A stretch of DNA of 64,000 bases from Candidatus Methanophaga sp. AG-394-G06 (GTDB lineage Archaea > Halobacteriota > Syntropharchaeia > Alkanophagales > Methanospirareceae). The notes under the pieces were generated by a model. That model was not told where the DNA came from. It saw only the letters and a list, made by a program, of their open reading frames with translations, and searched no databases. Shown one piece after another: positions 40,192 through 56,037 of this stretch. The first letter of the stretch is position 1. Each line of letters starts with the position of its first letter. Location of the stretch: positions 912-64,911 of the forward strand of contig PRCZ01000002.1 in the NCBI GenBank assembly GCA_009903405.1, in the 5' to 3' direction. The position numbers and the translations under genes are program-made.

Positions 40192-40192
40192 C

Positions 40193-42687: not shown

Positions 42688-42933
42688 TTACATTTCCCGT
42701 TCAAAGGCAACCCAGGTTTCCGTTGTTGAGACCTCTCTGCTCTGGTGGAGGAAATCTATTATTACTTCTGAGTCTTCCGCCTCGTAAATCCATACCGCGT
42801 CATACCTGCCCAGTGTATGATACACTTGCAGGAACTTGACGCCGGTGGGCGGATTTTTAAGTAGCTCGTCGCCGAATTTCTTTGCATCTTCCACCATGCC
42901 TGAATTAACCCTCACGCACGTTATAAACAACAT
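42688..42933 (-). CDS. GYD-domain-like small protein
   Basis: The protein is 81 aa and contains HTLGRYDAVWIYEA, matching the conserved G-Y-D signature. Confidence 0.4.
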   Translation of the reverse strand: MLFITCVRVNSGMVEDAKKFGDELLKNPPTGVKFLQVYHTLGRYDAVWIYEAEDSEVIIDFLHQSREVSTTETWVAFEREM

Positions 42934-43211
42934 CTTTTTTTTCGACCTCCCTATATATATCTAACGATTGAAGTATAATAAAGATATGTTCATTTCTACT
43001 TTTTTAATTCTGAAATTGGGATTTGGGATTTTTCAAGACGGAATTTTTGTTTTTAATGAGACAGAATTTCCAAGCTTTGCACCTATCATTGAATCAATGA
43101 GCGCAAAAATTGCCGGCAACCAGATTATATCACTCCGAGACCAAAATATTTTATATCTTTTTAATCTTTTATAAATCAACCATCACATAAATCGAAAGGA
43201 GAGATATTAAA

Positions 43212-44222
43212 ATGAAAGAGGCGATGTTCTATGAGAAGCTGGAAGGGAACGCTGTTAGATGTCACCTATGCCCACATCATTGCAAGATAAACGAATCGAG
43301 GCGAGGGATATGTGGGGTTAGAGAAAACAGGGGTGGTATTCTCTACAGCCTGGTTTATGGAAAGGTAGTTGCGAGAGGGATTGATCCAATAGAGAAGAAG
43401 CCGTTCTTCCATTTCTATCCCGGCTCTGAGGCATACTCGGTTGCTACGGTTGGATGCAATTTCAGATGTAAAAACTGCCAGAACTTCGAAATTTCTCAGA
43501 TGCCTAAAGAAGACAAGAGGCAGATAGTAGGGGAAGATGTATCTCCTGAAGAGATTGTTGCGACAGCTAAGCAATATGGTTGTAGAAGCATCGCATACAC
43601 GTATACCGAACCGACCATCTTTTTCGAGTTTGCTTATGATACTGCCAGACTGGCGCATAAAGAAGGAATATGCAACACCTTTATCTCGAACGGGCATATT
43701 ACAGAGGAGGCTATACGCACTCTCGCCCCTTATTTAGATGCGGTAAATGTAGACCTGAAGGGGCTATCGGAAGACATGTATCGAAAAATTTGCGGTGGGC
43801 ACTTGAAACCTGTCCAGGATGCGATAAAGCTATACAAAAGCCTGGGTGTTTGGGTTGAGGTAACCACGCTGGTTATACCAACGTTGAACGATTCCGAGGA
43901 AGATTTCAGAGGGATTGCCGAATTCATCAAAAGTGTAGGCGTGGACATACCCTGGCATGTCTCACAGTTCTATCCCATGTATAAGCTAACTCATCTCCCT
44001 CCAACACCGGTTAGTACCTTACGTGAAGCGAGGGAAATTGGGCTGGAGGTAGGGTTGAGATACGTGTATGAGGGCAATGTTCCGGGTGAGGGAGGAGAGA
44101 ATACCTACTGCTACCAATGCGGAGAGTTGCTAATCCGGCGCTATGGATTTCAAATCAGGGAGAATAAAATACTAGATTCAAGATGTCCAAGTTGTGGTAC
44201 CAAGATAGATGGGAGATTGTAA
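43212..44222 (+). CDS. amrS: AmmeMemoRadiSam-system radical SAM enzyme (PFL-activase-like)
   Basis: The N-terminal CHLCPHHC and the radical SAM motif CNFRCKNC are present. The N-terminus has the MKEAMFYEKLE...ICGVREN character of this family. Confidence 0.75.
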   Translation: MKEAMFYEKLEGNAVRCHLCPHHCKINESRRGICGVRENRGGILYSLVYGKVVARGIDPIEKKPFFHFYPGSEAYSVATVGCNFRCKNCQNFEISQMPKEDKRQIVGEDVSPEEIVATAKQYGCRSIAYTYTEPTIFFEFAYDTARLAHKEGICNTFISNGHITEEAIRTLAPYLDAVNVDLKGLSEDMYRKICGGHLKPVQDAIKLYKSLGVWVEVTTLVIPTLNDSEEDFRGIAEFIKSVGVDIPWHVSQFYPMYKLTHLPPTPVSTLREAREIGLEVGLRYVYEGNVPGEGGENTYCYQCGELLIRRYGFQIRENKILDSRCPSCGTKIDGRL

Positions 44223-44278
44223 GTTTACGAGAAATAAAAAGCGAAAAGTATTTATACATGGATTTGTAATCTATTAGC

Positions 44279-44449
44279 ATGGTTAAGTGTCCAAAATGTG
44301 GTAGGGAAATAAAGGGATATGAAGAAGGATGGGATTGTTGCCCCTACTGCGGGGCAAAGTTGTTCGTTGATTGCCCTTTCTGCGACCAAAAACTTGAGGA
44401 GATGTGGAGTTACTGCCCCTACTGTGGGAAACCCACGCCGAAAGATTAA
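44279..44449 (+). CDS. Double zinc-ribbon miniprotein (56 aa)
   Basis: The sequence reads MVKCPKCGREI...CCPYCGAKLFVDCPFCDQ...YCPYCGK. It is not in the ORF track, and I prefer it to the antisense 93-aa ORF. Confidence 0.45.
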   Translation: MVKCPKCGREIKGYEEGWDCCPYCGAKLFVDCPFCDQKLEEMWSYCPYCGKPTPKD

Positions 44450-44762
44450 AGTTTTCCCTTTGGGTGACAAATAGTATTCTGGCACATCCTTTCGTTCCTG
44501 GTAAGGAGATAGCGGAGGCTTTAATGTTCCCATATATATTCTCTAAGGTAATGGTCTGGTACAGTAGCTACAATAAATGCTGTTAACACCAGCAGGGTAA
44601 GGAGTGTTATCCTCTGCCAATTCCATGTCTCCGGTCCCGCTATTCCCATCCCTATTCCCAGCAGTGTGATGAAAAGGAAGAACAAAAGGGCGTATCTGGG
44701 TAAAGAAAGCTTAGGAAATTTCTTTAACAGAAGTTAGTTCCTCCATTTAATACCTCTAATAA

Positions 44763-45341
44763 TTATGAATACTTTACTGTATTTCGTCTTGTTCTGTTTT
44801 CTATTAGTTCAATAATTTCGCCCACAACGAGGGAAGCAATAGCAATATAAGGCAGCAGCACGACCACAAATAATACCCCAAAGTAATAGATCATCAGAGG
44901 TAGCAGTGGTATTTTTATAGCCCTGCTGTACAGAAAAGCAGCAATCAAACCGCTTCTCATCCCCCTGTCTCGAAGATCTTTCAATAAAGGATACCAGACA
45001 TAAATAGGTCCATGGCTAAGTATTCCAGTGGATATAGCTAAGGACCATCCTTTTATTCCGGACCCTTTTCCAACGTACTTTGATACGGTTTTTGGATGTA
45101 AGAAATAATCTAGAAGCGCCATAAAAAGGATAACGAGCAATAACACAGGAATTATCTGAATAATTATGTTTCCGCTCACTTTTAGTGAGTTACATGTACC
45201 TTCCGGGTCAAAGAAAAAGAGAAGGAGATATAGAAAAATAACAGAACCCAAAAAATAGTAATCATAGTGTTTATCCCACTTCCTCTTCGCCGCTTCTCCT
45301 TTGTTTCCTACTTTATTTTCGGTATCTCCCATGACCTTCAT
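44763..45341 (-). CDS. Putative permease, C-terminal half (COG0701/DUF318-like, encoded as two ORFs)
   Basis: The protein is a polytopic membrane protein. It overlaps the upstream half by 4 nt. Confidence 0.45.
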   Translation of the reverse strand: MKVMGDTENKVGNKGEAAKRKWDKHYDYYFLGSVIFLYLLLFFFDPEGTCNSLKVSGNIIIQIIPVLLLVILFMALLDYFLHPKTVSKYVGKGSGIKGWSLAISTGILSHGPIYVWYPLLKDLRDRGMRSGLIAAFLYSRAIKIPLLPLMIYYFGVLFVVVLLPYIAIASLVVGEIIELIENRTRRNTVKYS

Positions 45342-45799
45342 TGGACCACCATCAATGTCGTAACAGTTGCTATGGACACTAAGATAGCGAGAATGAACCC
45401 CAGCGAGTTTCTAATAACTGCGAATCGTTTGCCGAGAAAGGCCGCTTCAGCAGGAAATTGAACTATACTAACCGTTACCCATGTCACTATGAATGCAGTT
45501 ATCGCAAAGAGGCTCACACCCTCTTTCATGAGCTCCCCACCTATTATATAGCTGGTGATAGGATTACCTGCGGCGATACTTCCAATTGCAGAGCCAATTA
45601 CAGTATCACGAAACAATTCCCCTGTAAATACAGATGCAATAAACTGTTTTGATACACATGTTAGGAAAAGTCCCAAAAGCAGGACAACCCCAAGCAACGT
45701 TGGAAGAGCAGCCCCTAAACTTTTGAATGCACGATAAAAAGACCTGACAATACTTTTGGGTTTTTCATTGTCTATACCCGTTGGTTTAGGATTAGTCAT
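45338..45799 (-). CDS. Putative permease, N-terminal half (COG0701/DUF318-like)
   Basis: The sequences GSAIGSIAAGNPITSYIIGGELMKEG and QFPAEAAFLGKRF are present. The gene overlaps the radical SAM start by 8 nt. Confidence 0.45.
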   Translation of the reverse strand: MTNPKPTGIDNEKPKSIVRSFYRAFKSLGAALPTLLGVVLLLGLFLTCVSKQFIASVFTGELFRDTVIGSAIGSIAAGNPITSYIIGGELMKEGVSLFAITAFIVTWVTVSIVQFPAEAAFLGKRFAVIRNSLGFILAILVSIATVTTLMVVQ

Positions 45800-46784
45800 G
45801 CCCTCTCTTTTCCTCCATTGTAAGCCAGAAGACTTTCTCCTGGTATTTCAACTTCTTTATTTTTCCGCTTTTCTCCAGCCGTTTTATACTATCGCGAATA
45901 TTATATTTCTTTGGTAAAGCTTTCTTTTTGAAAGAAAGGTTTCTTAGCGTGTCTATAACCTGCCCCTCTCTCATTGGGTGCCGTCTTATTATTGCTAAAA
46001 TAGCATCTTCTGGGTTTGTGAATCCCTCAGTGGAAAATTCTCCAGTCTCCTCTTCGGTAATATCCACTACATTAGCATCATTAAGAATCGCATGTGCTAA
46101 TGTGATGGCGTCTTTATCAGGCGGTACAGCCCAAGGTTCCGCAGGTGGTCTTATCGGTACATTTATATACGTTCGATTGGGCTCTATCTTCTCAAGCCTG
46201 CTTTTTAGTGCTTTTAATTCTCTTTCTGTGTCATTTAGCCCCTTTACCAGCATGACTTCTACCCATATCTCACCGTTATAATCTCGCCTGAATCGTTCCA
46301 AACCTTCGACAACCGCCTTAAAATCAAGCCCGCGATGCGGCCTGTTTATCTTTCTGTATGTTTCGACAGTGCCGGCATCGAGGGAGGGCATAACAATATC
46401 TGCTTGTGAAAGGTCGTTTCTTACATCTTCTCTGTAAAGCAGGGACCCGTTTGTATCAACAGCTATGGGTATATCTGCTATTTCCTTAGTCTTCCTGATT
46501 AGCCAACCAAGGCTTTTACATAAAGTCGGTTCGCCTTCGCCTACGAAGGTCACAAAATCTATTTCGCGGTGGCTACTTTCTGCTTCTATTACTCTTCTGA
46601 TTTCGTTCAGCAACTCTTCTGGTGGAAAGAAGTCTTTACGCTGATTTGTCATGTGCGTTGTCCTGCCAAGCTGGCAGTAGACACAGGAATAGTTACAGGT
46701 TTTGAATGGGATTGGGTTAACGCCTAAAGAGCGACCAAGACGCCGTGATGGAACTGGTCCATAGACCATTTTCAGTTTATACAT
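45792..46784 (-). CDS. Radical SAM protein (COG0731-like) with a C-terminal extension of about 90 aa
   Basis: The N-terminus is GPVPSRRLGRSLGVN and the Cx3Cx2C motif is CNYSCVYC. Confidence 0.75.
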   Translation of the reverse strand: MYKLKMVYGPVPSRRLGRSLGVNPIPFKTCNYSCVYCQLGRTTHMTNQRKDFFPPEELLNEIRRVIEAESSHREIDFVTFVGEGEPTLCKSLGWLIRKTKEIADIPIAVDTNGSLLYREDVRNDLSQADIVMPSLDAGTVETYRKINRPHRGLDFKAVVEGLERFRRDYNGEIWVEVMLVKGLNDTERELKALKSRLEKIEPNRTYINVPIRPPAEPWAVPPDKDAITLAHAILNDANVVDITEEETGEFSTEGFTNPEDAILAIIRRHPMREGQVIDTLRNLSFKKKALPKKYNIRDSIKRLEKSGKIKKLKYQEKVFWLTMEEKRGHD

Positions 46785-46865
46785 CTATGTACTATTAGAT
46801 GTCACATCATAGTAAACTTTAGCCGCCCTAAAAAAGCAAAATAATCTTATAGAAGCCCCATCCAT

Positions 46866-47349
46866 GTCACGCCCGGAATGAAATAGTGCCAAATGGCCAG
46901 TACTTCAGCATTGGCTGATAAATATAATCAAAACAGAGGTACTGGAAAATGAAAAGGAAGCAGGAAAAAGAGCGATATTATAGACTGCCCTTTAAGACAC
47001 TGGACCGGCAGTTCCAACAAGAAGCGATTGAAGGTTTGAGCTGTTCACCACTGGAGGCAAAAGCACTTACCGAGATTGTTAAAGAAGATTTTTTTAGAGA
47101 AAAAAGATCCGGTACAGGTAGCAAGAGAGACAGATCACAGTCCAGAAGCAGAGGGGAAGTATTGCCAGCAGTTTAATAAAGTGAAGTGGTGTGTGGAAAA
47201 TGAGATGGGTAAGGATGAGATAAGGATTGTTACCGGAATGAAAGCACATTTAATAGATGAATACCTAAAGATTATGGAGGAGCATAAAACAGCCCTTCCT
47301 CCTTAAGGGGTACTGGCCAAATGGCACAACATAAATTCCGGGGCATCCC
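46866..47349. mobile_element. MITE-like element of about 480 bp bounded by imperfect 40-bp inverted repeats
   Basis: The left end reads cccggaatgaaatagtgccaaatggccagtac. The right end reads gtactggccaaatggcacaacataaattccggg. The interior contains a small frameshifted ORF. Confidence 0.4.
46949..47306 (+). pseudogene. Small ORF inside the inverted-repeat element, split across two overlapping frames (46949-47176 and 47076-47306)
   Basis: The T7 and A6 homopolymers at about 47090-47105 are plausible slippage sites. The product is unrecognised. Confidence 0.3.
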
Positions 47350-47370
47350 TTTGTATATGCCCTCGGTTTC

Positions 47371-48129
47371 TTATTTTCTTTCGTTTATTATTTTTGGACA
47401 AACATCTTTAATAGGACATTCATCACACTTTGGATCAGTAGGACGACACCATCCCTTTTCCATTCCTATATCCCATATTGGAAAATCCAATTCACCGGGA
47501 TCCTCGGGATTTAATTCTCTTGCACTTTGAAGTATCGTATTTTTATCATCTGTTTTCGCTAAACCCGTTCTTAAAAAGACCCGTTTAACATGTATATCAA
47601 ATGAAATGTTACTTTCACTTTTATCGCCTACTCCCTTCCTTAAAACACGAATAAGTATATTCGTTGCCATTGATGCTTTTTTCTGCCCGATACCTTTGAA
47701 TAATTCAAATCTCCGTTGCAAATCAGCATATCCAGGGTTACCATTCCAAATGTTTGCTGCGTTTCCCTCATATCTATCTATTAACATTTTACACGCATCT
47801 TTTATATATGCTGCATACTTATTGGGAAATCGGTGCAGTTTTGGTGCTTCATTAAAAATGACTTTTAGTTCATCGTCTTTCATTTCAGAAATCTTTTTAA
47901 CATCGAGATGTCCAAGTCTCTGTTTCAAAATAAAAGGTTTTTCCCACGCCTGTTCCGCAGTTATACTTTGATCAAATATCACACCGAAAAGAAATGCATT
48001 TGGGTCATCTACCAGCAATTTATTTACCTCGGGATTCAGCGTTGGTTCAAATTTTGTCACTTTCAACGTCCGACCGTATTCGAGGATCTTATTTACTACT
48101 TTTTGTTTTTCTTCCATAGTCTGTATCAC
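47371..48129 (-). CDS. HhH-GPD-superfamily DNA glycosylase (endonuclease III-like) with a C-terminal [4Fe-4S] cluster loop
   Basis: The HhH motif is GIGQKKASMATNIL. The Cys loop is WCRPTDPKCDECPIKDVCPK (Cx6Cx2Cx5C). Confidence 0.6.
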   Translation of the reverse strand: MIQTMEEKQKVVNKILEYGRTLKVTKFEPTLNPEVNKLLVDDPNAFLFGVIFDQSITAEQAWEKPFILKQRLGHLDVKKISEMKDDELKVIFNEAPKLHRFPNKYAAYIKDACKMLIDRYEGNAANIWNGNPGYADLQRRFELFKGIGQKKASMATNILIRVLRKGVGDKSESNISFDIHVKRVFLRTGLAKTDDKNTILQSARELNPEDPGELDFPIWDIGMEKGWCRPTDPKCDECPIKDVCPKIINERK

Positions 48130-48135
48130 TAACTA

Positions 48136-48783
48136 TTATTTCCTTGCGTACCATAGGTTCGCTACATAAACCAATAGAGGTATAATGGCAAAATCTACAC
48201 TATATCCCAACAGATTTTCCGCTGTTTTGGAGGTAGTAACTATTCCAATTAGTACGATTAATACCGCTGCAAACCCTATGAAAGCAGAATAAACAATTTT
48301 AGCTCTTTCTGTTAATTTGTACATCCCGTAAAGAGTATAGAAATATGTTACAACCATTATCAAGTATGAAACGACTATTGCACTCATAAAAGAACTGGGA
48401 GACTTTTCACTTCCGACAATACCACCAATTACGAATAAAAGGGCCAAAAATCCAAAGATGCCATTTAGCACCATCAAAACTTTTCGCAATCTGATTTTTG
48501 GCACTAATGTTGACAGATCTGGACTAATCAGTTTGTATCCGGTGTAAATGATAATTATAGATGCGATAATTGCAAGGATAAGTCATATTCCTATATTTGC
48601 CCCTGCTAATGCTCCAAATGGATCTCCTTCAAGTTCACTTTCCATTTGGCGGATAGCATAAGAAACAGCGAGTAAGCTCGTTACACTGAAAATAGCCATA
48701 AGTGCACCAACACCGATTAATCCTTTTGCTTTTGTACTTGGTTTTGACATCCAAGAGATTCCAAATGCCGCTAAAGCCAACAA
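48136..48783 (-). pseudogene. Membrane protein interrupted by a single in-frame TGA (48583-48585)
   Basis: The sequence ...ALAGANIGI is followed by TGA and then LILAIIASIIIIYTGYKLISPDLSTLVPKIRLRK in the same frame. Both halves are TM-rich. Confidence 0.4.
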
Positions 48784-48818
48784 GAAATAAATGGTACCAA
48801 AATAGGTACCACTATAAG

Positions 48819-49106
48819 TTAGCTATAGAACGCATTTATATCTTTTGTAATTCCAAGAATTTGCACTGTCACCCAAGGAAGGAACGATGCTATAATTGCA
48901 AGGGCTGGACCAATGAACAGAGTTATGTCAAATTTCTTCATAACCAATTTCAAATCAGCTTTTTTCTCCTCTTCAAAAAGTTCACACACACAATCTTTAC
49001 AATAATTTTTGCCTTCAATATTCACTCTACACTCAGCGCAGATAGCTTTACCACAATTGGCGCAAACTCCTATCGCCTCGCGTTCGAGATGTTTTTCACA
49101 TTTCAT
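48819..49106 (-). CDS. B-box-like zinc-finger protein with a C-terminal TM segment
   Basis: The Cys/His cluster reads MKCEKHLEREAIGVCANCGKAICAECR...CKDCV and is followed by a hydrophobic helix. Confidence 0.45.
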   Translation of the reverse strand: MKCEKHLEREAIGVCANCGKAICAECRVNIEGKNYCKDCVCELFEEEKKADLKLVMKKFDITLFIGPALAIIASFLPWVTVQILGITKDINAFYS

Positions 49107-49222
49107 TTTTTACAGACGGGCATTTCCTTTTTAAGTCACTATACTTAAGCACGACCGCCGATAACTTAAACTACCCTATTAGCATAGGTATGACCTAGGA
49201 TTATAAAAGCTTTCCGATTTTT

Positions 49223-49760
49223 TTATTTTTGATCTTTCCCTCCAAAAAGTTTGTTATAAAGCGATGTGTACCTGTGCGCTTTAAGTTTCTCCTTTTCTTC
49301 AGCTATCACAGGAGCAGTATCTGTCTTCTCGTAACCCTTCTGCCCCGATATATACCTCTCTACCACTTCCCAGCCATGCCCTACTGAGCCATGATAACAA
49401 GAAGGCGCCCACAGATGACTCGGGCACCACTCCTTAAGCTGCGGGAATCGATCCCTCAACAGCTTACTACTTCTACCCTTTATCCGCTTCGCTATCCAGC
49501 TTACCGAATACTTCGGTGGACTGCGAAGCATTTCTGTGAAACATTTTTGATAAAACTTTTCTTAAATGTTTTGTAAACGCTTTTTCTAAAAGGGTTTTTA
49601 TGAACAAAGGTACATGATCCACATTCATTGCCATGTCTATAATCGCAATATCAAGCTCTTTGCAGGTTTCCCTGAGAATTTCTCCCGCCACCTCTGCAAC
49701 ATCCCCGAGCTATACCTTCCAGCGATATTTCAGTGAAAAACAGGAATTTCATCCCGGTAA
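49223..49760 (-). mobile_element. tnpA: Degraded IS200/IS605-family tnpA (Y1 HuH transposase) with frameshifts
   Basis: The 102-aa ORF reads SPPKYSVSWIAKRIKGRSSKLLRDRFPQLKE...HLWAPSCYHGSVGHGWEVVERYI, which matches the TnpA C-terminal half. The overlapping 72-aa ORF in another frame has DIAIIDMAMNVDHVPLF, corresponding to the HuH region. Confidence 0.6.
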
Positions 49761-49824
49761 AGTTTTCAAACAGAGCAGGGAGCAGGGAGATCAAATACAA
49801 CATTCAATTTGTAATTCATTCATA

Positions 49825-50691
49825 CTAATTTATACCATCCCACACCACCTTTATCGCATCCGATACCACCCCTTCTGCGAATTCAACCACCGGCATACCC
49901 GCAACCATCGCTTCAGTGACCACGGAGTCGTATGGTATGTTGCCAACAACTTGTATTCCTCGCTGTCTGCAAAACTCGGTAATCCTCTTGCTGTTCTCTT
50001 CATTAATGTCGTATTTATTGATGCAGACGGCGGAAGCAATACCGAAATGTCTGGTCACATCCATGATTCGTTCGAGGTCATGCAGTCCGGACATCGTGGG
50101 CTCGGTAACGATGAGCGCAAGGTCCACACCGGCCAATGACGCAATTACAGGGCAGCCGATGCCCGGCGATCCGTCAATCAGAATGAGTTCACAGCCCTCT
50201 TTTTCTGCAACCTGCTGTGCATTGTTTCTAACAACAGTGACCAGTTTTCCTGATGCCTCTTCCGCGATATTGAGCTGCGCATGCACCATTGTGCCATAGT
50301 TAGTCTTTGATATAAATGCATAGCCCGAGACACGTTCTTTCAGCGTAACCGCTTCCTGTGGACACGTAAACACACAAGCGCCACAGCCCTCACAACGTGC
50401 GGGATTGACTGCATAGCCTGATTCTTCGGTCGAAGCAATAGCGTTGAATCGACATGTTTCTTCGCACGTTCCACACTCGGAGCATAGCGTTTTATCTATA
50501 ACGGCAACTTTCACGCCTTTAAACTCCTCCTTCTTTATGATTTCCGGATGTAGCAGCAGATGGAGGTCTGGTGCGTCTACATCGCAGTCTACAATGACTT
50601 TGTTCTCTACAAGGGCCGCGAACGAGCCCACAAGGGTTGTCTTCCCCGTGCCACCTTTTCCACTAATAACCGTTATTTGTTTCATTTGCAT
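49825..50691 (-). CDS. MinD/ParA-family P-loop ATPase with an inserted 2x[4Fe-4S] ferredoxin domain (COG1149, CooC-like)
   Basis: The P-loop is ISGKGGTGKTT. Two CxxCxxCxxxCP clusters are present. Confidence 0.8.
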   Translation of the reverse strand: MQMKQITVISGKGGTGKTTLVGSFAALVENKVIVDCDVDAPDLHLLLHPEIIKKEEFKGVKVAVIDKTLCSECGTCEETCRFNAIASTEESGYAVNPARCEGCGACVFTCPQEAVTLKERVSGYAFISKTNYGTMVHAQLNIAEEASGKLVTVVRNNAQQVAEKEGCELILIDGSPGIGCPVIASLAGVDLALIVTEPTMSGLHDLERIMDVTRHFGIASAVCINKYDINEENSKRITEFCRQRGIQVVGNIPYDSVVTEAMVAGMPVVEFAEGVVSDAIKVVWDGIN

Positions 50692-50772
50692 ATACCTTTT
50701 ATAATCACAAGATTACACACATTTTTACAAAAACCCTTTTCTTAGAAAGAAAAGCTGTACCAAAAGAACTAT

Positions 50773-50850
50773 TTTTTCTTTTAGCACAGGCTAAATTTTC
50801 TTTTTTAAAAAAGAAAAAGTGTTGTGTAAATCTTGTGTAATCTCGTGGTT
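50773..50850. repeat. Intergenic repeat of about 70 bp, copy 2 (see 4565-4632)
   Basis: It is nearly identical to copy 1. It has an extra GTGTAATCT duplication at the 3' end and lies between the two MinD-ferredoxin genes. Confidence 0.7.
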
Positions 50851-51703
50851 ATAATAGAACTTTATCAATTATCCCTGCAAATCGCTCCTTCCACTCCGGC
50901 ATCGCCTTCACAAAGGGCACGCCCTCAGAATAGTAACGTGCAATCCGCGTGTCATGTGGAATCTCAAGCAAAATCGGAATCCCTTCCTTCTCGCAGTACT
51001 CATACACCTTTCGATCCCCAATCCCTGCTTTATTTATAACCATGCCAAAAGGAATCTTAAGCACTCTGAGCACCTCAACTGCAAGCCTCAAATCGTAGAG
51101 CCCAAACGGGGTGGGCTCAGTCACAAGAATGCAGTAATCGCTTCCTTGCACGGCTGCAATCACCGGGCATGCCGTTCCCGGTGATACATCAATAATCACT
51201 GTCTTTTCCGGATCAAGGTCCGCTTTTACCTGGTCGATCAGCGGTGTTGCCATTATCTCCCCGATATTCAACACCCCGTACACGAGGTCAACGTTGCCGT
51301 CACCGCTTTTTCCTGTTTTTATAACGCCGATCTCCCTCGGTTCCTCGCTGATCGCATCCTGCGGGCATACTAAGGAACATAACCCACAGCCGTGGCAAAG
51401 TTCCGGAAACAGCATTACTTCTTTTTGTGGCACCGCAACAAGAGCGTTGTATTCACACGCCGCAGCACACTTACCGCAGTAATCACACAAATCGTAATTG
51501 ACCCTTGGCACCAGCGTATACGCCGGCTTTATCTCCTCGATCACCGGATTAAGGAAGATATGTGAATTTGGCTCTTCTACATCGCAATCCATTAATTGTA
51601 CGTTCGAAAGCGACAGAGCCAGATTAACAGCTACGGTTGTCTTTCCCGTACCGCCTTTGCCGCTTGCTACCGCAATAATCATCGGTTCACCGTTTTGTTG
51701 CAT
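50849..51703 (-). CDS. MinD/ParA-family ATPase with an inserted ferredoxin domain, second paralogue
   Basis: The P-loop is ASGKGGTGKTT and Cys clusters include CDYCGKCAAAC and CHGCGLCSLVCP. The start was set at the internal Met to avoid the overlap. Confidence 0.8.
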   Translation of the reverse strand: MQQNGEPMIIAVASGKGGTGKTTVAVNLALSLSNVQLMDCDVEEPNSHIFLNPVIEEIKPAYTLVPRVNYDLCDYCGKCAAACEYNALVAVPQKEVMLFPELCHGCGLCSLVCPQDAISEEPREIGVIKTGKSGDGNVDLVYGVLNIGEIMATPLIDQVKADLDPEKTVIIDVSPGTACPVIAAVQGSDYCILVTEPTPFGLYDLRLAVEVLRVLKIPFGMVINKAGIGDRKVYEYCEKEGIPILLEIPHDTRIARYYSEGVPFVKAMPEWKERFAGIIDKVLL

Positions 51704-51714
51704 TGTGCGTCCCA

Positions 51715-52074
51715 TTAATGCCGGTGCATTTTGCACGCATTGGCATCACTAGCTTCGTTGAGTCTCCCTGCCTGAAAAGCGCTTATTGCTTCGCTTACCG
51801 TACCACTGGCGCCTACATACACCTCTATCCCCAACTGTTCAAACGCGCTTATTGCACGAGGGCCTAATCCGGAACAGAGCATTATCTCTGCACCCGCACC
51901 TGCTACGAGATCCGGTGTATTGCCTACACCGCCAAAATGTTCACCCGTGTTCTGCACAATTTCCACCTTGTTACTCACCATATCCACAACAGTAAATGTT
52001 GGTGCTCTTCCAAAATGCTCACTTACAAGATCTTCCAATCCTCCATTTCCCAATGAGGGAATGCATAGTTTCAT
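51715..52074 (-). CDS. NifX/NafY-family domain protein (stand-alone, 119 aa)
   Basis: The sequence reads MKLCIPS.........HFGRAPTFTVVD...GVGNTPDLVAGAGAEIMLCSGLGPRAISAF. Confidence 0.75.
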   Translation of the reverse strand: MKLCIPSLGNGGLEDLVSEHFGRAPTFTVVDMVSNKVEIVQNTGEHFGGVGNTPDLVAGAGAEIMLCSGLGPRAISAFEQLGIEVYVGASGTVSEAISAFQAGRLNEASDANACKMHRH

Positions 52075-52078
52075 ATGT

Positions 52079-52570
52079 TCATCTCCTCTCTTTTTTATTC
52101 CTCTTTTTATTCCTATTCTTATTCTTACTCTTATAATCTTCCAGAGCTGCTCTTAGCGTGTCCATTGCAAGCACAGAGCAATGAATGTTTTCTTCCGGTA
52201 AACCACCCAAAACGGATAAAACGTCCTTGCCCTCTACCGTGAGTGCTTCTTCGATTGTCTTACCTTTCACCAGTTCTGTAACCACGCTTCCACATGCCAT
52301 TGAAGCACCACAACCATCGGTTATGAATTTGCAATCTACGATTTTATTCTCTTCAACTTTAATATGCATCTGCAGTGTGTCTCCGCAGGGGCCGGTTACT
52401 CTGGCAGCACCACTGGGGGCTTCCAGTTCACCAACGTTTTTTGGGTTGTATGCCGCCTCAAGTGTCTTCTCAGTGTATATTCCCCTTTCCTCTTCTAATA
52501 TTTCCTCTTCCATCTTCTTGGTTAGTTCATCGAAATCGGAAGTTTCATTTTTTTCGGTTATTTTTTCCAT
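52079..52570 (-). CDS. IscU/NifU-N-like Fe-S scaffold protein with an acidic N-terminus and a polybasic C-terminal tail
   Basis: The conserved ligands are GPCGD, DGCGAS and HCS. The tail reads KSKNKNRNKKRNKKERR. Confidence 0.7.
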   Translation of the reverse strand: MEKITEKNETSDFDELTKKMEEEILEEERGIYTEKTLEAAYNPKNVGELEAPSGAARVTGPCGDTLQMHIKVEENKIVDCKFITDGCGASMACGSVVTELVKGKTIEEALTVEGKDVLSVLGGLPEENIHCSVLAMDTLRAALEDYKSKNKNRNKKRNKKERR

Positions 52571-52619
52571 TTTACCTGCATTTCATCACGCATTTTTTAA
52601 CGTTTAAATATTTACACAC

Positions 52620-52931
52620 TTATAGCTCTTCGATACTTCTTTCCATCTCTTCAACTTTGGACCTTACGACGTTTAATTGCGTTTTTAGCCTCTCTAGTAC
52701 TGGATCTCTCTGCAAAATTGGAGATGAATGTGGGGCTATTTGGATGGCACCCTTTGGACAAGCCCGTACACAAGCAGTGCAGCAGATACACCTGTTAAAA
52801 TCCACTACTGCTTTTTTATCAACAATTCCAATCGCACCGGTACAGCAAACCGCGGTGCACTTTCCACACCCTACGCATAGTTCTTCGTTAACAAAAGCTT
52901 TCCAAGCTAATGATTGTATAGATTGCTGCAT
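52620..52931 (-). CDS. 2x[4Fe-4S] ferredoxin with a C-terminal coiled-coil tail
   Basis: The clusters are [11 protein letters not shown] and [12 protein letters not shown]. The tail reads [25 protein letters not shown]. Confidence 0.75.
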
Positions 52932-52965
52932 AGCACACTAAAAAAGAAAAAGGAGCAAGAAAGAG

Positions 52966-53004
52966 CTATCTTCTCGCTTTTCCACACAGTTCGCATTTAC
53001 CCAT
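52966..53004 (-). pseudogene. Truncated copy of the 55-aa zinc-ribbon gene (12 codons, MGKCELCGKARR-stop) at the edge of duplication B
   Basis: It is homologous to the start of the 39436-39603 gene. Confidence 0.4.
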
Positions 53005-53043
53005 TCCCTTCTCCTCATGTTTCTAATTGGCCCTTTCCACTCT

Positions 53044-53361
53044 TTACTTTCTCAGTTCTTCCAGTCTCTTCTTTATCTGCTCTAACTGGTCCCCAAGCAT
53101 CTGTGCCTGCGATTCGAGCATAGAAATCTCCTGCTCTTTCGGCACTGCTGCCATGCCCATTGGTGCAACCGGTGCAACTGCTGGTGCTTGCTGCTGTATC
53201 CAAGAAGCAAACTGCGGCATCTGTCCTGTCTGTGTGAGATACTGTGCACCCGGCGGCATTCCCGTTGGGCTTCTTCCTACCCAACCCGGAGAGTATCCAA
53301 ATCGCATCCAGCCGGGTAAACCAGTCAGATAATACATGTTTCTGTGTCTATTTCCTCCCAT
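53044..53361 (-). CDS. Low-complexity Gly/Tyr/Trp/Pro/Met-rich protein (105 aa) with a coiled-coil tail (copy B)
   Basis: It differs from copy A only at residues 4-7. Positions 53040-53342 are 100% identical to 39640-39942. Confidence 0.55.
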   Translation of the reverse strand: MGGNRHRNMYYLTGLPGWMRFGYSPGWVGRSPTGMPPGAQYLTQTGQMPQFASWIQQQAPAVAPVAPMGMAAVPKEQEISMLESQAQMLGDQLEQIKKRLEELRK

Positions 53362-53388
53362 TTTTTTCTTATCGCCTCCTAATTTTTT

Positions 53389-53592
53389 TTATGGTCTCGC
53401 CATTTTAGACCCGCATTTTGGGCAGCTCTGCTGATAGCATGGCACCCCCGTTTGATGCGACATTGTATAGCCACAATTCGGGCATCGACAATCTCCGGCA
53501 GGACCCAATCCGCTGCCACCCATTCTCCCTTGCCCTTGACCTCCTCGTCCTATTCCTTGACCTCTTCCTCCTCCTCTACCCATGCCACTCAT
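53389..53592 (-). CDS. RGG-box plus zinc-ribbon miniprotein (67 aa, copy B)
   Basis: The sequence reads MSGMGRGGGRGQGIGRGGQGQGRMGG...CRCPNCG...CPKCGSK. It is identical to copy A at 62 of 67 residues. Confidence 0.55.
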   Translation of the reverse strand: MSGMGRGGGRGQGIGRGGQGQGRMGGSGLGPAGDCRCPNCGYTMSHQTGVPCYQQSCPKCGSKMARP

Positions 53593-53603
53593 CTTATTTT
53601 ACG

Positions 53604-54248
53604 TCACCTCTTTTTAAGTTCTTCTAGCCTCTTCTTCACTTCTTCCAAATCTTTCACCAGTCTATTAGCCATGTTCGATAGGTCTTCGATTTCTTCTTCT
53701 TTCGTTCGAGGCTTTATTGGTGCCTGCGGCGCTTGTGGTTGCGAAGGCAGTGGTTGCTGCATGCCAAGTCCCATACCTCTGCCCATACCTCTGCCCATGC
53801 CTTGCCCTCTACCGCCGCCTCGTCCTCCGCCCATGCCCATACCCATGCTCGTGCCCATGCCAAATCCGCCACCCGGTGCAGTAGCGCCCATACCAGCATG
53901 AGCAGCTACTGTTGAAGTACCTGTCTCACCTAACTTACCGCCTTTATACATCTCAACAGCTTCTTGTACCGTGCCATAAGCGCCTGTTCCAATTTTCACA
54001 CCAGCGGTGGACAACACTTGAAAAGCATTGGGACCTATATTCCCCGAAATGACTACATTCACACCTTTATTCACCATTGTTTGTGCCGCCTGAATTCCCG
54101 CTCCACCCGGTGCGGCAATCGCTTCGTTCGCCATCGCTTCAAATGCCATTGTCTCCGAATCTACGATTACAAAGTATTGGCACCTTCCAAACCTCGGGTC
54201 TACCTGTGCATTCAGGTCTCCTGCCGTTGCGGTTACGCATATCTTCAT
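53604..54248 (-). CDS. NifX/NafY-family domain protein with a Met/Gly/Arg-rich linker and a coiled-coil tail (copy B)
   Basis: The domain is the same as in copy A. The linker is longer (GMGTSMGMGMGGGRGGGRGQGMGRGMGRGMGLGM) and the tail reads KEEEIEDLSNMANRLVKDLEEVKKRLEELKKR. Confidence 0.8.
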   Translation of the reverse strand: MKICVTATAGDLNAQVDPRFGRCQYFVIVDSETMAFEAMANEAIAAPGGAGIQAAQTMVNKGVNVVISGNIGPNAFQVLSTAGVKIGTGAYGTVQEAVEMYKGGKLGETGTSTVAAHAGMGATAPGGGFGMGTSMGMGMGGGRGGGRGQGMGRGMGRGMGLGMQQPLPSQPQAPQAPIKPRTKEEEIEDLSNMANRLVKDLEEVKKRLEELKKR

Positions 54249-54297
54249 CTTTATCTTTCACCTTCTTCCTATAGATTTTGATTTTTTCTTCTTTATG

Positions 54298-54311
54298 TGA
54301 ATATATATTCA
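54298..54311. promoter_or_regulatory. Palindrome TGAATATATATTCA upstream of operon B, with a TATA-like TATATAAA at 54318-54325
   Basis: On the coding strand the order is TTTATATA, 6 nt, palindrome, about 45 nt, ATG. Confidence 0.5.
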
Positions 54312-54332
54312 TATGAGTATATAAATGATAGA

Positions 54333-54734
54333 CTATGATGAAACCAAAGGATCTCCACCACGCCCATGTCTCCCTCTTTTCCAGTCAGGAGACAGTTTCG
54401 AAAGGGGCACATGCGTTTCATTGTTAGCACTCAATATTACATAATTACCGCCTTCTATTCTTATTGCTTTCCCTTCAACAAAAGCTTCTGCTATCTTCCG
54501 ATGTGCTTCGCTTACTATTCGATGGAATGTAGGTTGCGAAACGCCCATTTTTTTCGCTGCTTCTTCCTGACTTAGCCGCTGATAGTCTTTAAGCCTTATG
54601 CTCTCCAGTTCTTCCACTTTCAATATCAATCTTTCATAGACCTCAGGATTAGGCGTTCTTTCACCTCGTCGTGGCTCGAAGAGGAGGAAATTTGGCTTGA
54701 CGCTTACGCACCTGCACAGTCTTCGCCCTGGCAT
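54333..54734 (-). CDS. DUF134 (UPF0251) predicted DNA-binding protein
   Basis: The N-terminus is MPGRRLCRCVSVKP. The sigma-70 region-4-like HTH reads LSQEEAAKKMGVSQPTFHRIV, followed by GKAIRIEGG. The start was set at MPGRR rather than the upstream ATG that lies inside the palindrome. Confidence 0.75.
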   Translation of the reverse strand: MPGRRLCRCVSVKPNFLLFEPRRGERTPNPEVYERLILKVEELESIRLKDYQRLSQEEAAKKMGVSQPTFHRIVSEAHRKIAEAFVEGKAIRIEGGNYVILSANNETHVPLSKLSPDWKRGRHGRGGDPLVSS

Positions 54735-54737
54735 ATA

Positions 54738-54751
54738 TGAATATATATTCA
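54738..54751. promoter_or_regulatory. Third copy of the palindrome TGAATATATATTCA, 3 nt upstream of the DUF134 start codon
   Basis: The site is seen directly in the sequence. Autoregulation is inference. Confidence 0.5.
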
Positions 54752-54852
54752 CAATACACGTTAAAGTTTCACACTTTAATTTTTTCGAGATGTTGCAATC
54801 TTGAGAATACTAGCAGTACAACATGAAAAAGTCGGATCTTCAGCAGAGTGTC

Positions 54853-56037
54853 TTAACCCCCCTTCTTACCCTTATACCCCTTATATACCTCACGTTGTAT
54901 AATAAACCGCATTATCTCATTTGTGCCCGCGGGAATCATAGACAACCTCGCCATCCGGAACGCCCATTCCGCGGGATATTCGTCTGCGAGTCCCCGGCCA
55001 CCCAATATCTGTACAGTGTTATGCGCAACTTCGTAAAACGCCTCAGAAGCAAGAAGCTTTGCCATCGCCGATTCCTGCTCTGCTTCGAACCCCCCATCAA
55101 TCAGCCTAACGGTATGATAGACCATCAACTTAGCAGCTTCTAACTTCGTCACCATGTCCGCGATTTTGAAACTTATTGCCTCGAATCGGCTTATCGCGGT
55201 CCCGAACTGCTCCCTATCCATTGAATATTCGACCGCGAGTTCTAGTATTGGTCTCGCCTCGCCAACTAACATCGCGGCATATAACACTCGCTCAATAGAT
55301 AACTCATCGAACATTACCCTTGCCCCTTCGTTCTCGCCGCCGAGCATATTTTTCCCCGGTACTCGCACATCATCAAACCTGAGATAAGAATTTACCGTGC
55401 CTGGAAACCCGCCCAGTAGCTTATAATCACGCTTCACCTCAAACCCCTTAGTGTCTGATTCCACAATGAACACGCTTATTCCCTTTGCCGGATCAACCAC
55501 AGGATTTGTTATCGCCCATACTAAGAGGACATCCGCTTTACTACCATTTGTTATGTTCCTCTTCTCTCCACAGATCAGATACTCATCGCCTTTTCGCTCT
55601 GCGCTTGTCTTGATACGCATAACGTCACTTCCCGCTTCGGGCTCAGTTATCGCAATTGCACCGATCTTAGCACCGCTTTTCATTGCAGGCAAATAGATAC
55701 TCTTCTGCTCCTCGTTACCATACCGTGCAATCGTTGCGTATGCATAAGAGGAGGTGGAATGTATCCATGCGAGCGGCACGCAAGCAGCACCAAGTTCCTC
55801 TGCCAATATCGCTTCATATACCAATTTCCCCCTGCCACCATATTCTTCGGGCAATACAGGCGCTAAGAAGCAGGCATCGCCTAGTTTAGCGTAGAGTGCT
55901 CGCGGATAAAAATCCCGTTCATATATCTCACGCTCTATCTTCTTCGCATCCACGCCCTCAAGGAACGCTCTCAGCGATTCTCTGAATTCGCTCTCAGCCG
56001 CAGAGAAAAGGATCTCTTCTTTATTTTGCATCTTCAT
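54853..56037 (-). CDS. Acyl-CoA dehydrogenase family protein
   Basis: The ACAD fold is indicated by an N-terminal helical region, a middle beta domain and the C-terminal FGGYG-like region. Confidence 0.8.
   Translation of the reverse strand: MKMQNKEEILFSAAESEFRESLRAFLEGVDAKKIEREIYERDFYPRALYAKLGDACFLAPVLPEEYGGRGKLVYEAILAEELGAACVPLAWIHSTSSYAYATIARYGNEEQKSIYLPAMKSGAKIGAIAITEPEAGSDVMRIKTSAERKGDEYLICGEKRNITNGSKADVLLVWAITNPVVDPAKGISVFIVESDTKGFEVKRDYKLLGGFPGTVNSYLRFDDVRVPGKNMLGGENEGARVMFDELSIERVLYAAMLVGEARPILELAVEYSMDREQFGTAISRFEAISFKIADMVTKLEAAKLMVYHTVRLIDGGFEAEQESAMAKLLASEAFYEVAHNTVQILGGRGLADEYPAEWAFRMARLSMIPAGTNEIMRFIIQREVYKGYKGKKGG

Follow-up and report, generated by a model that had tools for sequence, protein, structure and literature searches.

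The window analysed here, a 64-kb stretch of DNA from a methane-oxidising ANME-1 archaeon, holds nine co-directional minus-strand genes at 49825-54734. Read from 54734 down to 49825, they encode a DUF134 protein, a NifX-fold protein with a DUF5320 tail, a Gly/Arg-rich zinc-ribbon protein, a DUF5320 protein, a ferredoxin, an IscU, a second NifX-fold protein and two MinD-ferredoxin ATPases. Domains were assigned by Pfam and NCBIfam profile searches, and the features of this locus and of a related region are as follows.

54738-54751, unstranded: candidate operator, the perfect 14-bp palindrome TGAATATATATTCA, ending 3 nt ahead of the DUF134 start codon
54333-54734, minus: DUF134 protein, 133 aa (PF02001, 91.6 bits; 133-aa gene call in L001)
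54298-54311, unstranded: palindrome copy 2; a TTTATATA box precedes it by 6 nt, and the NifX-tail gene follows it after ~50 nt
53604-54248, minus: NifX-fold + DUF5320-tail protein, 214 aa (PF02579, 88.3 bits; PF17253, 32.5 bits)
53389-53592, minus: Gly/Arg-rich zinc-ribbon protein, 67 aa (below every Pfam/NCBIfam cutoff; without a curated family)
53044-53361, minus: DUF5320 protein, 105 aa (PF17253, 26.9 bits vs cutoff 27)
52620-52931, minus: 2x[4Fe-4S] ferredoxin, 103 aa, with a C-terminal helical extension (Fer4 families)
52079-52570, minus: IscU-type scaffold, 163 aa (PF01592, IscU/NifU_N, 127.5 bits)
51715-52074, minus: single-domain NifX-fold protein, 119 aa, TM1816/PH0822 subtype (PF02579, 78.4 bits)
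50849 to about 51703-51736, minus: MinD-ferredoxin ATPase, A type, Orp3/Orp4-like (start 51703 per a 284-aa gene call in L001)
49825-50691, minus: MinD-ferredoxin ATPase, B type (34% identical to its A-type paralogue)
41975-42043, minus: remnant of a second DUF134 gene (C-terminal fragment) joined to a half palindrome (88% identical to 54443-54494)
41098-41946, minus: Mrp/NBP35 Fe-S carrier ATPase, 282 aa, CxxC motif (PF10609, 337.7 bits)
41068-41081, unstranded: palindrome copy 3, upstream of the paralogous NifX-tail gene
40414-41028, minus: paralogous NifX + DUF5320-tail protein, 204 aa (84% identical to the 214-aa protein)
40193-40417, minus: Gly/Arg/aromatic/Pro-rich protein, 74 aa, pI 10.5, with the motif FPWLPRRWW
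39988-40191, minus: second Gly/Arg zinc-ribbon protein (88% identical to the 67-aa protein)
39643-39960, minus: second DUF5320 protein (97% identical to the 105-aa protein)

The genes named in the original prediction exist, and the profile searches bear out its two MinD-type ATPases, each carrying a 2x[4Fe-4S] ferredoxin domain as an insert (49825-50691 and 50849-51736), its IscU-like scaffold, ferredoxin and DUF134, and the genes said to lie nearby: Mrp, cobO (42057-42581) and a pair of radical SAM genes (43212-44222 and 45792-46784). As a description it is partly confirmed: of its three NifX-fold proteins, two PF02579 proteins lie in the interval and the third (40414-41028) lies outside it, 13 kb off. 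The 67-aa and 105-aa genes, the DUF5320 tail of the 214-aa protein, the duplication and the promoter palindromes were absent from it. The Mrp-side genes (39643-42043) are a partial duplicate of the 49825-54734 locus, 13 kb away, in which the DUF134 fragment and half palindrome represent a deletion pseudogene; the ORP-type locus (see below) is thereby split over two places.

The 214-aa protein consists of a NifX-fold domain (residues 1-108), a Gly/Met/Arg repeat (109-160; 44% Gly, pI 12), a Pro/Gln linker and a coiled-coil DUF5320 end, and it differs from its 204-aa paralogue (pI 5.9) by GMGR-repeat indels. Its overall pI of 8.90 and the zero Gly in its last 40 residues, the latter because the Gly-rich part is internal, place it outside the published criteria for IssA and IssX. 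The 119-aa protein is nearest to the solved structures 1t3v and 1o13 (E about 4e-19). Among the small proteins, the 67-aa protein joins a Gly/Arg-rich N-terminal half (pI 12) to a C4 zinc ribbon, and the 105-aa DUF5320 protein pairs an aromatic/Pro/Gly/Arg-rich N-terminal part with a coiled-coil C-terminus. The motif YxxTGxPGWxRFGxSPGW is common to the latter and its homologues in L032, L076 and L078, and the FPWLPRRWW of the 74-aa protein recurs in a 91-aa protein of L032. Polybasic ends are seen on 7/14 cluster ferredoxins and 10/42 DUF134 proteins, and on 1% of ATPases and 0% of Mrp proteins. Cationic tails recur on several components, an observation that we did not meet in the ORP and IssA literature as far as searched.

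The A-type ATPase has a deviant Walker A motif, a 2x CxxCxxCxxxC insert and a conserved switch-II Cys, and its AlphaFold model has a pLDDT of 94.1. The A-then-B order is retained in 59/75 loci (median margin 143 bits), and many ATPase representatives are ~600 aa long with two matched stretches, which makes them look like A-B fusions. A six-frame search of the window for GKGGxGK[ST] P-loops returned only the two MinD-ferredoxin proteins and Mrp. The last corresponds to the P-loop domain of MrpORP, scoring 376 bits against NF041136 (MrpORP; model positions 1-256) and 256 bits against ApbC; both NifX domains also match the MrpORP model.

In an alignment with cluster-embedded IscUs, the IscU core retains all three Cys plus the Asp and His ligands, and residues 32-152 align full-length to structures 7c8m and 4eb5. 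The best NCBIfam score (130 bits vs 187.9) is under the equivalog cutoffs of all IscU/NifU models. The termini are as had been claimed: an acidic extension (residues 1-30, net charge -7) and a polybasic K/N/R tail (147-163), which makes up the last 17 residues, KSKNKNRNKKRNKKERR, with a net charge of +10. The tail is indeed atypical, since 0/24 cluster-embedded IscUs elsewhere exceed +5 in their last 25 residues, and it is found only in close ANME-1 relatives; an acidic extension of ~30 residues is common to other cluster-embedded IscUs. The window ORFs scanned yielded no cysteine desulfurase gene. The ferredoxin has a counterpart in the ANME-1 locus L086. Some ANME-1 relatives (L086, L087) have truncated forms of IscU and ferredoxin or lack them, so the two are dispensable.

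The DUF134 protein, a sigma-70 region-4-like HTH with an N-terminal CxC, adjoins the core in 34/80 loci. It is probably the counterpart of Orp5 and the regulator of the system; Orp5 itself we take to be a DUF134 protein, a view with which the operon order agrees. An Orp5 homologue is described as binding a [2Fe-2S] cluster (Maiti 2016, as cited in PMC6345978). The palindrome TGAATATATATTCA occurs in three exact copies in 64 kb, compared with 0.01 expected. It is kept at the same position in the ANME-1 loci L086, L087 and L088, which is weak evidence alone because the intergenic region as a whole is 76% conserved among close relatives; L032 has a one-mismatch palindrome just upstream of the probable DUF134 start. 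A perfect 14-bp palindrome marks all three predicted promoters, and no such element appeared in the ORP/IssA literature as far as searched. A PF00384 gene adjoins DUF134 in L086 and lies 43 kb distant in the window.

The comparison covered 80 genome loci anchored on the ATPase and 160 related loci in all. NifX accompanies the ATPase in 74 of the 80, DUF134 in 34, Mrp in 33, the Gly/Arg zinc-ribbon protein in 21, and IscU and DUF5320 in 15 each. A reverse search anchored on DUF5320 gave 34 loci of at least 6 kb, with ATPases in 28, NifX in 29 and homologues of the 67-aa zinc-ribbon protein in 20. DUF5320 and Gly/Arg-tailed proteins occur almost exclusively as accessories to the core, a role for which we saw no precedent in the ORP/IssA literature searched. 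The locus is recurrent, not unique, as had been said of the co-occurrence of COG1149, COG1433, COG0489 and DUF134: the same gene set, including IscU and DUF5320, recurs in the 160 loci from many anaerobe phyla. The rest of the original interpretation, which is partly supported, needs revision. The setting is not confined to methanogens, since the host is an ANME-1 archaeon and the 80 loci span Bathyarchaeia, Thorarchaeota, Dehalococcoidia, Clostridia, Bacteroidales, Planctomycetes, Desulfobacterota and others. To call the set "functionally uncharacterised" overstates the case, as it corresponds to the D. vulgaris ORP complex (PMC6345978). Nor is the instance "unusually elaborate": the full set is also present in L032 (a Methanosarcinales MAG) and L008 (a Dehalococcoidia MAG), and given the recurrence across the 160 loci the ANME-1 instance is simply complete.

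We put at roughly 50% the probability that the locus is the ANME-1 version of an anaerobe-wide ORP-type system that stores, rebuilds and delivers iron-sulfur clusters. The best reading is an ATP-driven Fe-S storage and delivery system, putatively autoregulated by DUF134. From the gene content, the homologies, the conservation of gene set and order, the tail chemistry and the palindrome statistics, which are directly observed, we infer the following biochemical steps. The NifX-fold proteins would hold preformed Fe-S fragments without a full Cys ligand set, while the cationic Gly/Arg/Met tails (NifX, zinc-ribbon, DUF5320 and 74-aa proteins) and the polybasic IscU tail would bind an anionic Fe-S polymer electrostatically, as for IssA and thioferrate, with DUF5320 coiled coils oligomerising the tailed proteins. 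Reassembly of [2Fe-2S] and [4Fe-4S] clusters and their onward transfer would fall to IscU and Mrp. The paralogous MinD-ferredoxin ATPases may form an A/B heterodimer that gates the passage of electrons and the transfer of clusters by means of ATP-driven dimerisation, its ferredoxin inserts and the separate ferredoxin. DUF134 would be an Fe-S-binding HTH repressor of its own promoter and of both NifX-tail promoters, acting through the palindrome between TATA box and transcription start.

The cargo could instead be a thiometallate, with the NifX-fold proteins binding anionic Mo/W-(Cu)-S clusters and the tails holding thiomolybdate or thiotungstate and Cu(I), as a Mo/W buffer or supply in sulfidic habitats. 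Among solved structures, the 214-aa protein comes nearest to 2wfb (E 1.5e-20), the orange protein of D. gigas, which was isolated with a non-covalent [S2MoS2CuS2MoS2], a Mo-Cu-S rather than Fe-S cluster (PMC6345978); the NifX tails are Met-rich (10/106 residues), Met being a typical Cu(I) ligand; and in sulfidic sediment, the ANME-1 habitat, Mo is present as thiomolybdate (chemistry: PMC11484787). We nevertheless consider this unlikely, since it is Fe-S proteins (IscU, Mrp, ferredoxin-type domains) that make up the conserved partners, no cluster-linked molybdate transporter or Moco gene was found in the window or the loci examined, and the homologues in M. voltae react to the Fe/S source. The latter is also an experimental hint in favour of the Fe-S storage reading: on pyrite, Mvol_0689, 0691, 0692 and 0693, a pair of Fe-S "cobyrinic acid a,c-diamide synthase" proteins bordered by two IssA-like ones, are up 2.3- to 5-fold, and M. 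voltae cells give thioferrate-like EPR signals.

Tails of the polybasic and RGG types classically bind nucleic acids and membranes, and the closest folds of the ATPases are MinD, FleN, FlhG and ParA. These observations would fit MinD/ParA-type ATPases that position a storage body or the division site, with tails bound to nucleoid DNA or anionic membrane, not to an Fe-S polymer. In Desulfovibrio the ORP complex is linked to cell division, not to storage; MrpORP is polar, and Orp3 and Orp4 reportedly have MinD-like C-terminal amphipathic helices. Against this equally improbable reading, the invariant eight-Cys ferredoxin insert of the ATPases compared and the switch-II Cys, kept in 134/135 MinD-ferredoxin proteins, are foreign to positioning ATPases, the fixed partners are metal-cluster carriers, and no MinE-, ParB- or McdB-like partner was recognised.

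Slightly less probable still is a dedicated maturase of one complex metalloenzyme encoded elsewhere, nitrogenase-like or with another unusual cluster. NifX/NafY/NifB-type domains do carry cofactor precursors in nitrogenase assembly (PMC5524996), and the SIMIBI ATPases NifH, CooC and HypB are maturation factors, HypB and ApbC being among the structural neighbours here. However, the window lacks a nif or nif-like structural gene, the searched-for conserved partners in 160 loci from diverse anaerobes all belong to carrier, scaffold or regulator families, and the system is present in many non-diazotrophs such as M. voltae (PMC9431491). A nitrogenase operon is rejected, as nifHDKENB are absent from the window: a Pfam scan of 40 window proteins (most large ORFs) gave 0 PF00148 matches and no PF00142 match both domain-covering and above cutoff, in line with the P-loop search. 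The original call of a stand-alone metallocluster-handling neighbourhood, not a nif operon, was right.

The Fe-S storage and delivery system proposed here shares with nif accessory genes (NifX, NafY, the NifB C-terminal domain) the NifX-fold superfamily, and its ATPases are in the SIMIBI class with NifH. Unlike NifH, they are nearer MinD/FleN by sequence and fold, and a ferredoxin insert replaces the subunit-bridging cluster ligands. The IscU resembles ISC-type IscU (Methanothrix thermoacetophila 7c8m, Archaeoglobus fulgidus 4eb5) in its core, 32-152, with all ligands, and differs in its terminal extensions, its sub-cutoff NCBIfam scores and the lack of a desulfurase among the ORFs scanned.

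IssA of Pyrococcus furiosus (PF2025; Vaccaro 2017, PMC5524996), an IPR003731 domain with a cationic Gly-rich tail, stores thioferrate and rebuilds ferredoxin clusters, and a similar role in Fe-S storage, akin to that of IssA, has been discussed for methanogen NifX-fold proteins (PMC8351635, PMC8516115). The ANME-1 proteins share with IssA and IssX an IPR003731/NifX globular domain and, behind it, a disordered tail that is cationic, rich in Gly and poor in Cys, and the 74-aa protein is close to the IssA tail in composition (74-aa protein/IssA tail: Gly 16/15, cationic 11/7, aromatic 16/14, Pro 10/11, pI 10.5/10.7). Unlike in IssA, the Gly/Arg segment is internal, Met-rich and followed by a Pro/Gln linker and coiled coil, outside the published sequence criteria; tail modules also occur as separate small proteins, and the genes share an operon with those for the ATPases and IscU. 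The text of Vaccaro 2017 gave no match for "gene neighbo" or "Mrp".

The closest match is the Desulfovibrio ORP cluster (Orp3/Orp4, Orp5, Orp8, MrpORP), for which an archaeal origin has been proposed (PMC8359166, citing Scholten 2007). The D. vulgaris complex has been purified, and MrpORP transfers Fe-S clusters to Orp3/Orp4/Orp8 in vitro (PMC6345978). Like D. vulgaris Hildenborough DVU2103-DVU2109 (Fievet 2011; Pardoux 2019, PMC6345978), the ANME-1 locus has adjacent paralogous MinD-like ATPases with two [4Fe-4S] motifs each, NifX-fold "Di-Nase" proteins, one of them near orange protein, a small DUF134/Orp5-type protein heading the operon and an Mrp/NBP35 carrier that fits the MrpORP model, and both are confined to anaerobes. 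The ANME-1 Mrp, however, has no NifX domain fused to it and is encoded 13 kb off in the duplicate locus, and the sigma-54 activator OrpR is absent, as expected for Archaea, with a palindromic candidate operator common to three promoters. To the ORP plan the ANME-1 locus adds IscU, a free ferredoxin, DUF5320, the Gly/Arg zinc-ribbon protein and long cationic NifX tails, components not found in the ORP literature as far as searched.

The segment 49825-54734 carries nine genes, all on the minus strand and all in one direction, with little space between them. Their identities were taken from Pfam and NCBIfam, and they are listed here in their order along the row.

Genes of the cluster at 49825-54734, first to last
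54333-54734, minus: first, DUF134; an ATG at 54734 gives 133 aa, and the same product is called in the matching contig
53604-54248, minus: second, 214-aa protein with a NifX-fold domain (PF02579, 88.3 bits) and a DUF5320 tail
Third, minus: 67-aa Gly/Arg-rich protein with a C4 zinc ribbon at its end, without a curated family
Fourth, minus: DUF5320 protein, 105 aa (Pfam/NCBIfam)
Fifth, minus: 2x[4Fe-4S] ferredoxin (Pfam/NCBIfam)
Sixth, minus: IscU-type scaffold (PF01592, 127.5 bits)
Seventh, minus: single-domain NifX-fold protein, 119 aa (Pfam/NCBIfam)
50849-51703 (A) and 49825-50691 (B), minus: eighth and ninth, MinD-type ATPases, both with PF01656/PF10609 and Fer4 families

The cluster is genuine, clearly bounded and recurrent. 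The gene list of the original prediction is borne out, except that two NifX-fold proteins, rather than three, lie inside 49825-54734, and that two small genes and the DUF5320 tail of the 214-aa protein had been missed. Directly downstream of the last ATPase gene lies part of a Y1 transposase gene of the IS200/IS605 type (49223-49531, minus); such a fragment occupies the equivalent relative position in another ANME-1 lineage (L086, 14690-14920). An Rfam search of 39000-55200 returned zero RNA-element matches.

The cluster had been described as not being a nif operon, and within the 64-kb window this holds, as no nifH, nifD/K, nifE/N or nifB is found there. Comparison of 40 window proteins, comprising most of the large ORFs, with Pfam yields zero PF00148 matches and no PF00142 match that both covers the domain and lies above the cutoff; PF00142 reaches 25.3 bits (cutoff 25) over a partial stretch of one ATPase, and Mrp (41098-41946) stays under the cutoff. 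Across the six frames of the window there are only three SIMIBI P-loops, those of the two ATPases and of Mrp, and none is of the NifH type. The motif GKGG[IV]GKS was rejected as a NifH screen in the related loci because Mrp matches it too, and it is of use within the window only. The closest homologues are from ANME-1/Methanophagales, and the EF-1alpha encoded in the window has the identical sequence in 'ANME-1 cluster archaeon AG-394-G06'. Elsewhere in the window, 21977-23673 holds a MetF-like methylene-tetrahydrofolate reductase gene, typical of ANME-1, and its C-terminal-domain partner (DUF5981), which together are considered to stand in for Mer in these archaea. Two long ORFs of 513 and 427 aa (26035-27576 and 32063-33346) have no Pfam match at 1e-5.

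The expected recurrence of the neighbourhood is confirmed by a genome scan (one genome per species, partners mapped by local phmmer), which recovered 80 ATPase-anchored loci spread over numerous phyla of anaerobic archaea and bacteria. NifX occurs in 74 of these, DUF134 in 34, Mrp in 33, the zinc-ribbon protein in 21, and IscU and DUF5320 in 15 each. When the search was reversed and anchored on bacterial DUF5320 in metagenome contigs, keeping loci of at least 6 kb (n = 34), the ATPases were present in 28, NifX in 29, Mrp in 15 and IscU in 10. These counts indicate that DUF5320 is a near-dedicated accessory of the system. The suggestion that this instance is unusually elaborate does not stand: its set is complete yet unexceptional, and the same families are found in L008, a Dehalococcoidia MAG.

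Each of the two ATPases has a two-cluster ferredoxin domain with eight invariant Cys inserted after the P-loop, and a switch-II Cys is found in 134 of 135 ATPase proteins. The order A then B is seen in 59 of 75 loci with a median margin of 143 bits, and the two are ancient paralogues in a fixed order. The family comprises 888 representative clusters (E <= 1e-30), many of whose representatives are about 600 aa long with two matched stretches and look like tandem A-B fusions. Such apparent fusions would support an interaction of A with B only, and not one whole physical complex. The AlphaFold model of the ATPase is confident (pLDDT 94.1), and the nearest solved folds are FleN, MinD, ApbC and HypB, at a TM of ~0.55; in this structure comparison the ferredoxin insert was not found in any solved protein.

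The head of the cluster is present twice in the window. The stretch 52979-54330 is repeated at 39578-41100 with 86-96% nucleotide identity, evidently by segmental duplication. The second locus, 13 kb away, encodes a 204-aa NifX-tail paralogue (40414-41028) that is 84% identical to the 214-aa protein and differs by GMGR-repeat indels, a zinc-ribbon protein and a DUF5320 protein that are 88% and 97% identical to their paralogues, and an additional 74-aa protein rich in Gly, Arg, aromatic residues and Pro. Mrp lies immediately upstream of its NifX-tail gene. Upstream of Mrp in turn, at 41975-42043, a C-terminal fragment of DUF134 is joined to half of a promoter palindrome. This remnant is a deletion pseudogene, in which the deletion fuses the half palindrome to codon ~85. 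The duplicate with Mrp has lost DUF134, and the duplicate with DUF134 is without Mrp. Nucleotide identity between the copies is 98% at the 3' end (105-aa gene) and 82% over the NifX gene, a difference suggestive of recent gene conversion. The undivided state is probably represented by L032, a Methanosarcinales MAG whose ATPase is 75% identical to that of the window, where a single row runs DUF134, Mrp, NifX-tail, DUF5320, ferredoxin, DUF5320, a 91-aa relative of the 74-aa protein, zinc ribbon, IscU, NifX, ATPase A and ATPase B. Adjoining the second locus are CheR and CheA chemotaxis genes (36548-39049).

The complete palindrome, TGAATATATATTCA, occurs as exactly three perfect copies in 64 kb, with 0.01 expected, and every copy is at a cluster promoter. 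A chance AT-rich match or an ordinary TATA box had been considered, and chance was rejected on these grounds. One copy ends 3 nt ahead of the DUF134 start codon, and the other two precede the NifX-tail genes, one each, at 6 nt downstream of a TTTATATA or TTTACATA box. Both positions are also present in three other ANME-1 loci, and in L032 a palindrome with one mismatch immediately precedes the probable DUF134 start. Conservation among close relatives is weak evidence on its own since the entire spacer is 76% conserved there. As an HTH protein, DUF134 would be the obvious candidate to bind the palindrome, and a sequence search for solved structures returned no relative of it. All three copies fall between the probable TATA box and the start of transcription, and the palindrome may function as part of the promoter instead of as an operator.

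A second recurring feature is the cationic tail. Gly/Arg-rich cationic segments are found in 19 of 21 zinc-ribbon proteins, 13 of 19 DUF5320 proteins, 12 NifX fusions and 6 DUF134 proteins. Polybasic C-termini, defined as a net charge of +6 or more over the last 25 residues, occur in 7/14 cluster ferredoxins and 10/42 DUF134 proteins, compared to 1% of the ATPases, 0% of Mrp and a crude background of about 6%. The tail of the window IscU, which had been singled out as atypical, carries +10 over 17 residues and is unequalled among 24 other cluster IscUs; the acidic N-terminal extension noted with it is real and is common to cluster IscUs of other phyla. The IscU core has all cluster ligands, three Cys with Asp and His (motifs CGD, GC and HC), and residues 32-152 align to 7c8m (NifU_N fold). 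No aminotransferase class V match, as expected of a cysteine desulfurase (IscS/NifS), was found among the 40 window proteins scanned. IscU tail length differs among close ANME-1 relatives through K/N repeats (P0272, P0279, P0285), as that of the NifX-tail proteins does through GMGR units (53604-54248 versus 40414-41028), which suggests slippage within coding repeats of low complexity. Other ANME-1 lineages have an IscU gene shortened to 97 aa (L086, 12010-12303) or lack both IscU and the ferredoxin (L087, 11418-12098), with the remainder of the operon intact; therefore, IscU and ferredoxin are accessories and not core. The C-terminal helix of the ferredoxin was considered as a homologue of the DUF5320 coiled coil and rejected, as BLASTP gives no alignment and Pfam no DUF5320 match; the resemblance is one of pattern only. 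In the ferredoxins of bacterial clusters (L134, L136, L149, L165, L166, L167, L116), a tail of poly-Arg or RG repeats comes after a conserved helix, LxFxGRxIxPRxAD..LDRR, and these proteins look like an undescribed subfamily.

Our main reading, to which we give a probability of about 0.5 with all of its biochemistry inferred, is that the cluster would be a system for storing, rebuilding and delivering Fe-S clusters, with A and B as an ATP-gated heterodimer and DUF134 as a repressor of its own expression. An extension that we consider unlikely takes the tails, both Gly/Arg and polybasic, together with the coiled coils of DUF5320 as a shared address label. NifX carriers, ferredoxin, IscU, a zinc-ribbon protein and the DUF134 regulator as well would then gather on a single body inside the cell, either a polyanionic Fe-S mineral or a condensate, with DUF5320 as its matrix protein, and MinD ATPases of the Orp3/Orp4 type would load, unload or partition this body. 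If true, anaerobes would have a widespread compartment for iron-sulfur storage, and the ORP complex would be its machinery. As a role for the cluster, cargo positioning or cell division (the ORP complex has been tied to the latter) is improbable, and thiometallate handling is equally so. A paper on thiomolybdate in M. maripaludis (PMC11484787) leaves the cluster unmentioned. A dedicated maturase is slightly less probable still. Should the storage reading fail, the locus still represents a gene cluster common in anaerobes, of which it is an ordinary example. Fe-S enzymes are exceptionally plentiful in the uncultured ANME-1, and the storage and distribution of iron and sulfide in these archaea bears on methane oxidation in sulfidic sediments.

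Storage of this kind has been studied in one organism only, in the form of IssA of P. furiosus, which joins the same globular domain to a cationic Gly-rich tail, stores thioferrate and can rebuild ferredoxin clusters (PMC5524996). The 214-aa protein has the IPR003731 (NifX-type) domain and matches MTH1175, the template for the IssA model, at 2e-18; the tails of the window proteins are chemically similar, and the 74-aa protein almost matches the reported IssA tail composition. Nevertheless, the NifX-tail proteins were rejected as IssA (pI >= 9, <5 Cys, Gly at least 20% of the last 40 residues) or IssX (pI >= 8, <10 Cys, Gly at least 10%), as the 214-aa protein has pI 8.90, 2 Cys and 0% Gly in its last 40 residues, and the 204-aa protein pI 5.93 and 2% Gly. 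The 214-aa protein falls outside both definitions because its Gly/Arg block (residues 109-160, 44% Gly, pI 12) is internal and is followed by the coiled coil. In Methanococcus voltae, Mvol_0689, 0691, 0692 and 0693 are more abundant on pyrite (PMC8516115, supplementary file 2). This set consists of a pair of Fe-S 'cobyrinic acid a,c-diamide synthase' proteins and the two IssA-like proteins that enclose it, and pyrite-grown cells give thioferrate-like signals; the discussion in that paper is confined to the IssA-like pair and does not remark on the ORP-type-ATPase look of the genes between. From their description, we infer that these genes are the same core cluster. A literature search on DUF5320, ANME-1 with NifX, and DUF134 with NifX and MinD found nothing relevant.

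The closest known system is the ORP complex of Desulfovibrio. In D. vulgaris it consists of Orp3 and Orp4 (MinD-like, two [4Fe-4S] motifs each), Orp5, the orange protein Orp8, and MrpORP, which transfers Fe-S clusters to Orp3, Orp4 and Orp8 in vitro (PMC6345978); an archaeal origin has been proposed for the system (PMC8359166). The operons are orp5-orp4-orp3 and orp7-orp8-orp9, and the regulator OrpR is confined to Deltaproteobacteria. No sigma-54 activator of the OrpR type was found among the 40 window proteins compared with Pfam, and archaea are not known to have sigma-54. In L041, L048 and L060, DUF134 heads DUF134-ATPase-ATPase operons, the order of orp5-orp4-orp3 with Orp5 presumably a DUF134 protein. 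The best NCBIfam match of the window Mrp is MrpORP (NF041136, 376 bits over model positions 1-256, the P-loop part; cutoff 450), the same model matches both NifX domains, and the 214-aa protein has as its best PDB match 2wfb, the orange protein of D. gigas (E 1.5e-20, residues 2-106, Orp8 type). Together these matches indicate the Desulfovibrio ORP system. The two adjacent paralogous ATPases, with two [4Fe-4S] motifs each, likewise match Orp3/Orp4 by published description. The cluster differs in that its orange-protein-type 214-aa protein has an added tail, and its Mrp is unfused, whereas MrpORP joins an Mrp/NBP35 P-loop part to a Di-Nase domain; the window Mrp is directly upstream of a NifX-tail gene, which is the gene order of the MrpORP fusion, and genuine fusions occur in L020, L025, L027, L035 and L068. 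The cluster is of the ORP type, with accessory modules for which we found no description in the literature, and the neighbourhood, once considered functionally uncharacterised, is therefore a known and partly characterised one. The cluster will not surprise a specialist in anaerobe Fe-S metabolism, and it gives functional context to DUF5320, which has no literature, and to the unannotated Gly/Arg zinc-ribbon family. The ORP and IssA lines converge in one operon and across 160 loci, which leads to the concrete hypothesis that ORP ATPases work on NifX-bound Fe-S stores and connects the ORP complex with IssA-type storage and DUF5320 in a way that can be tested.
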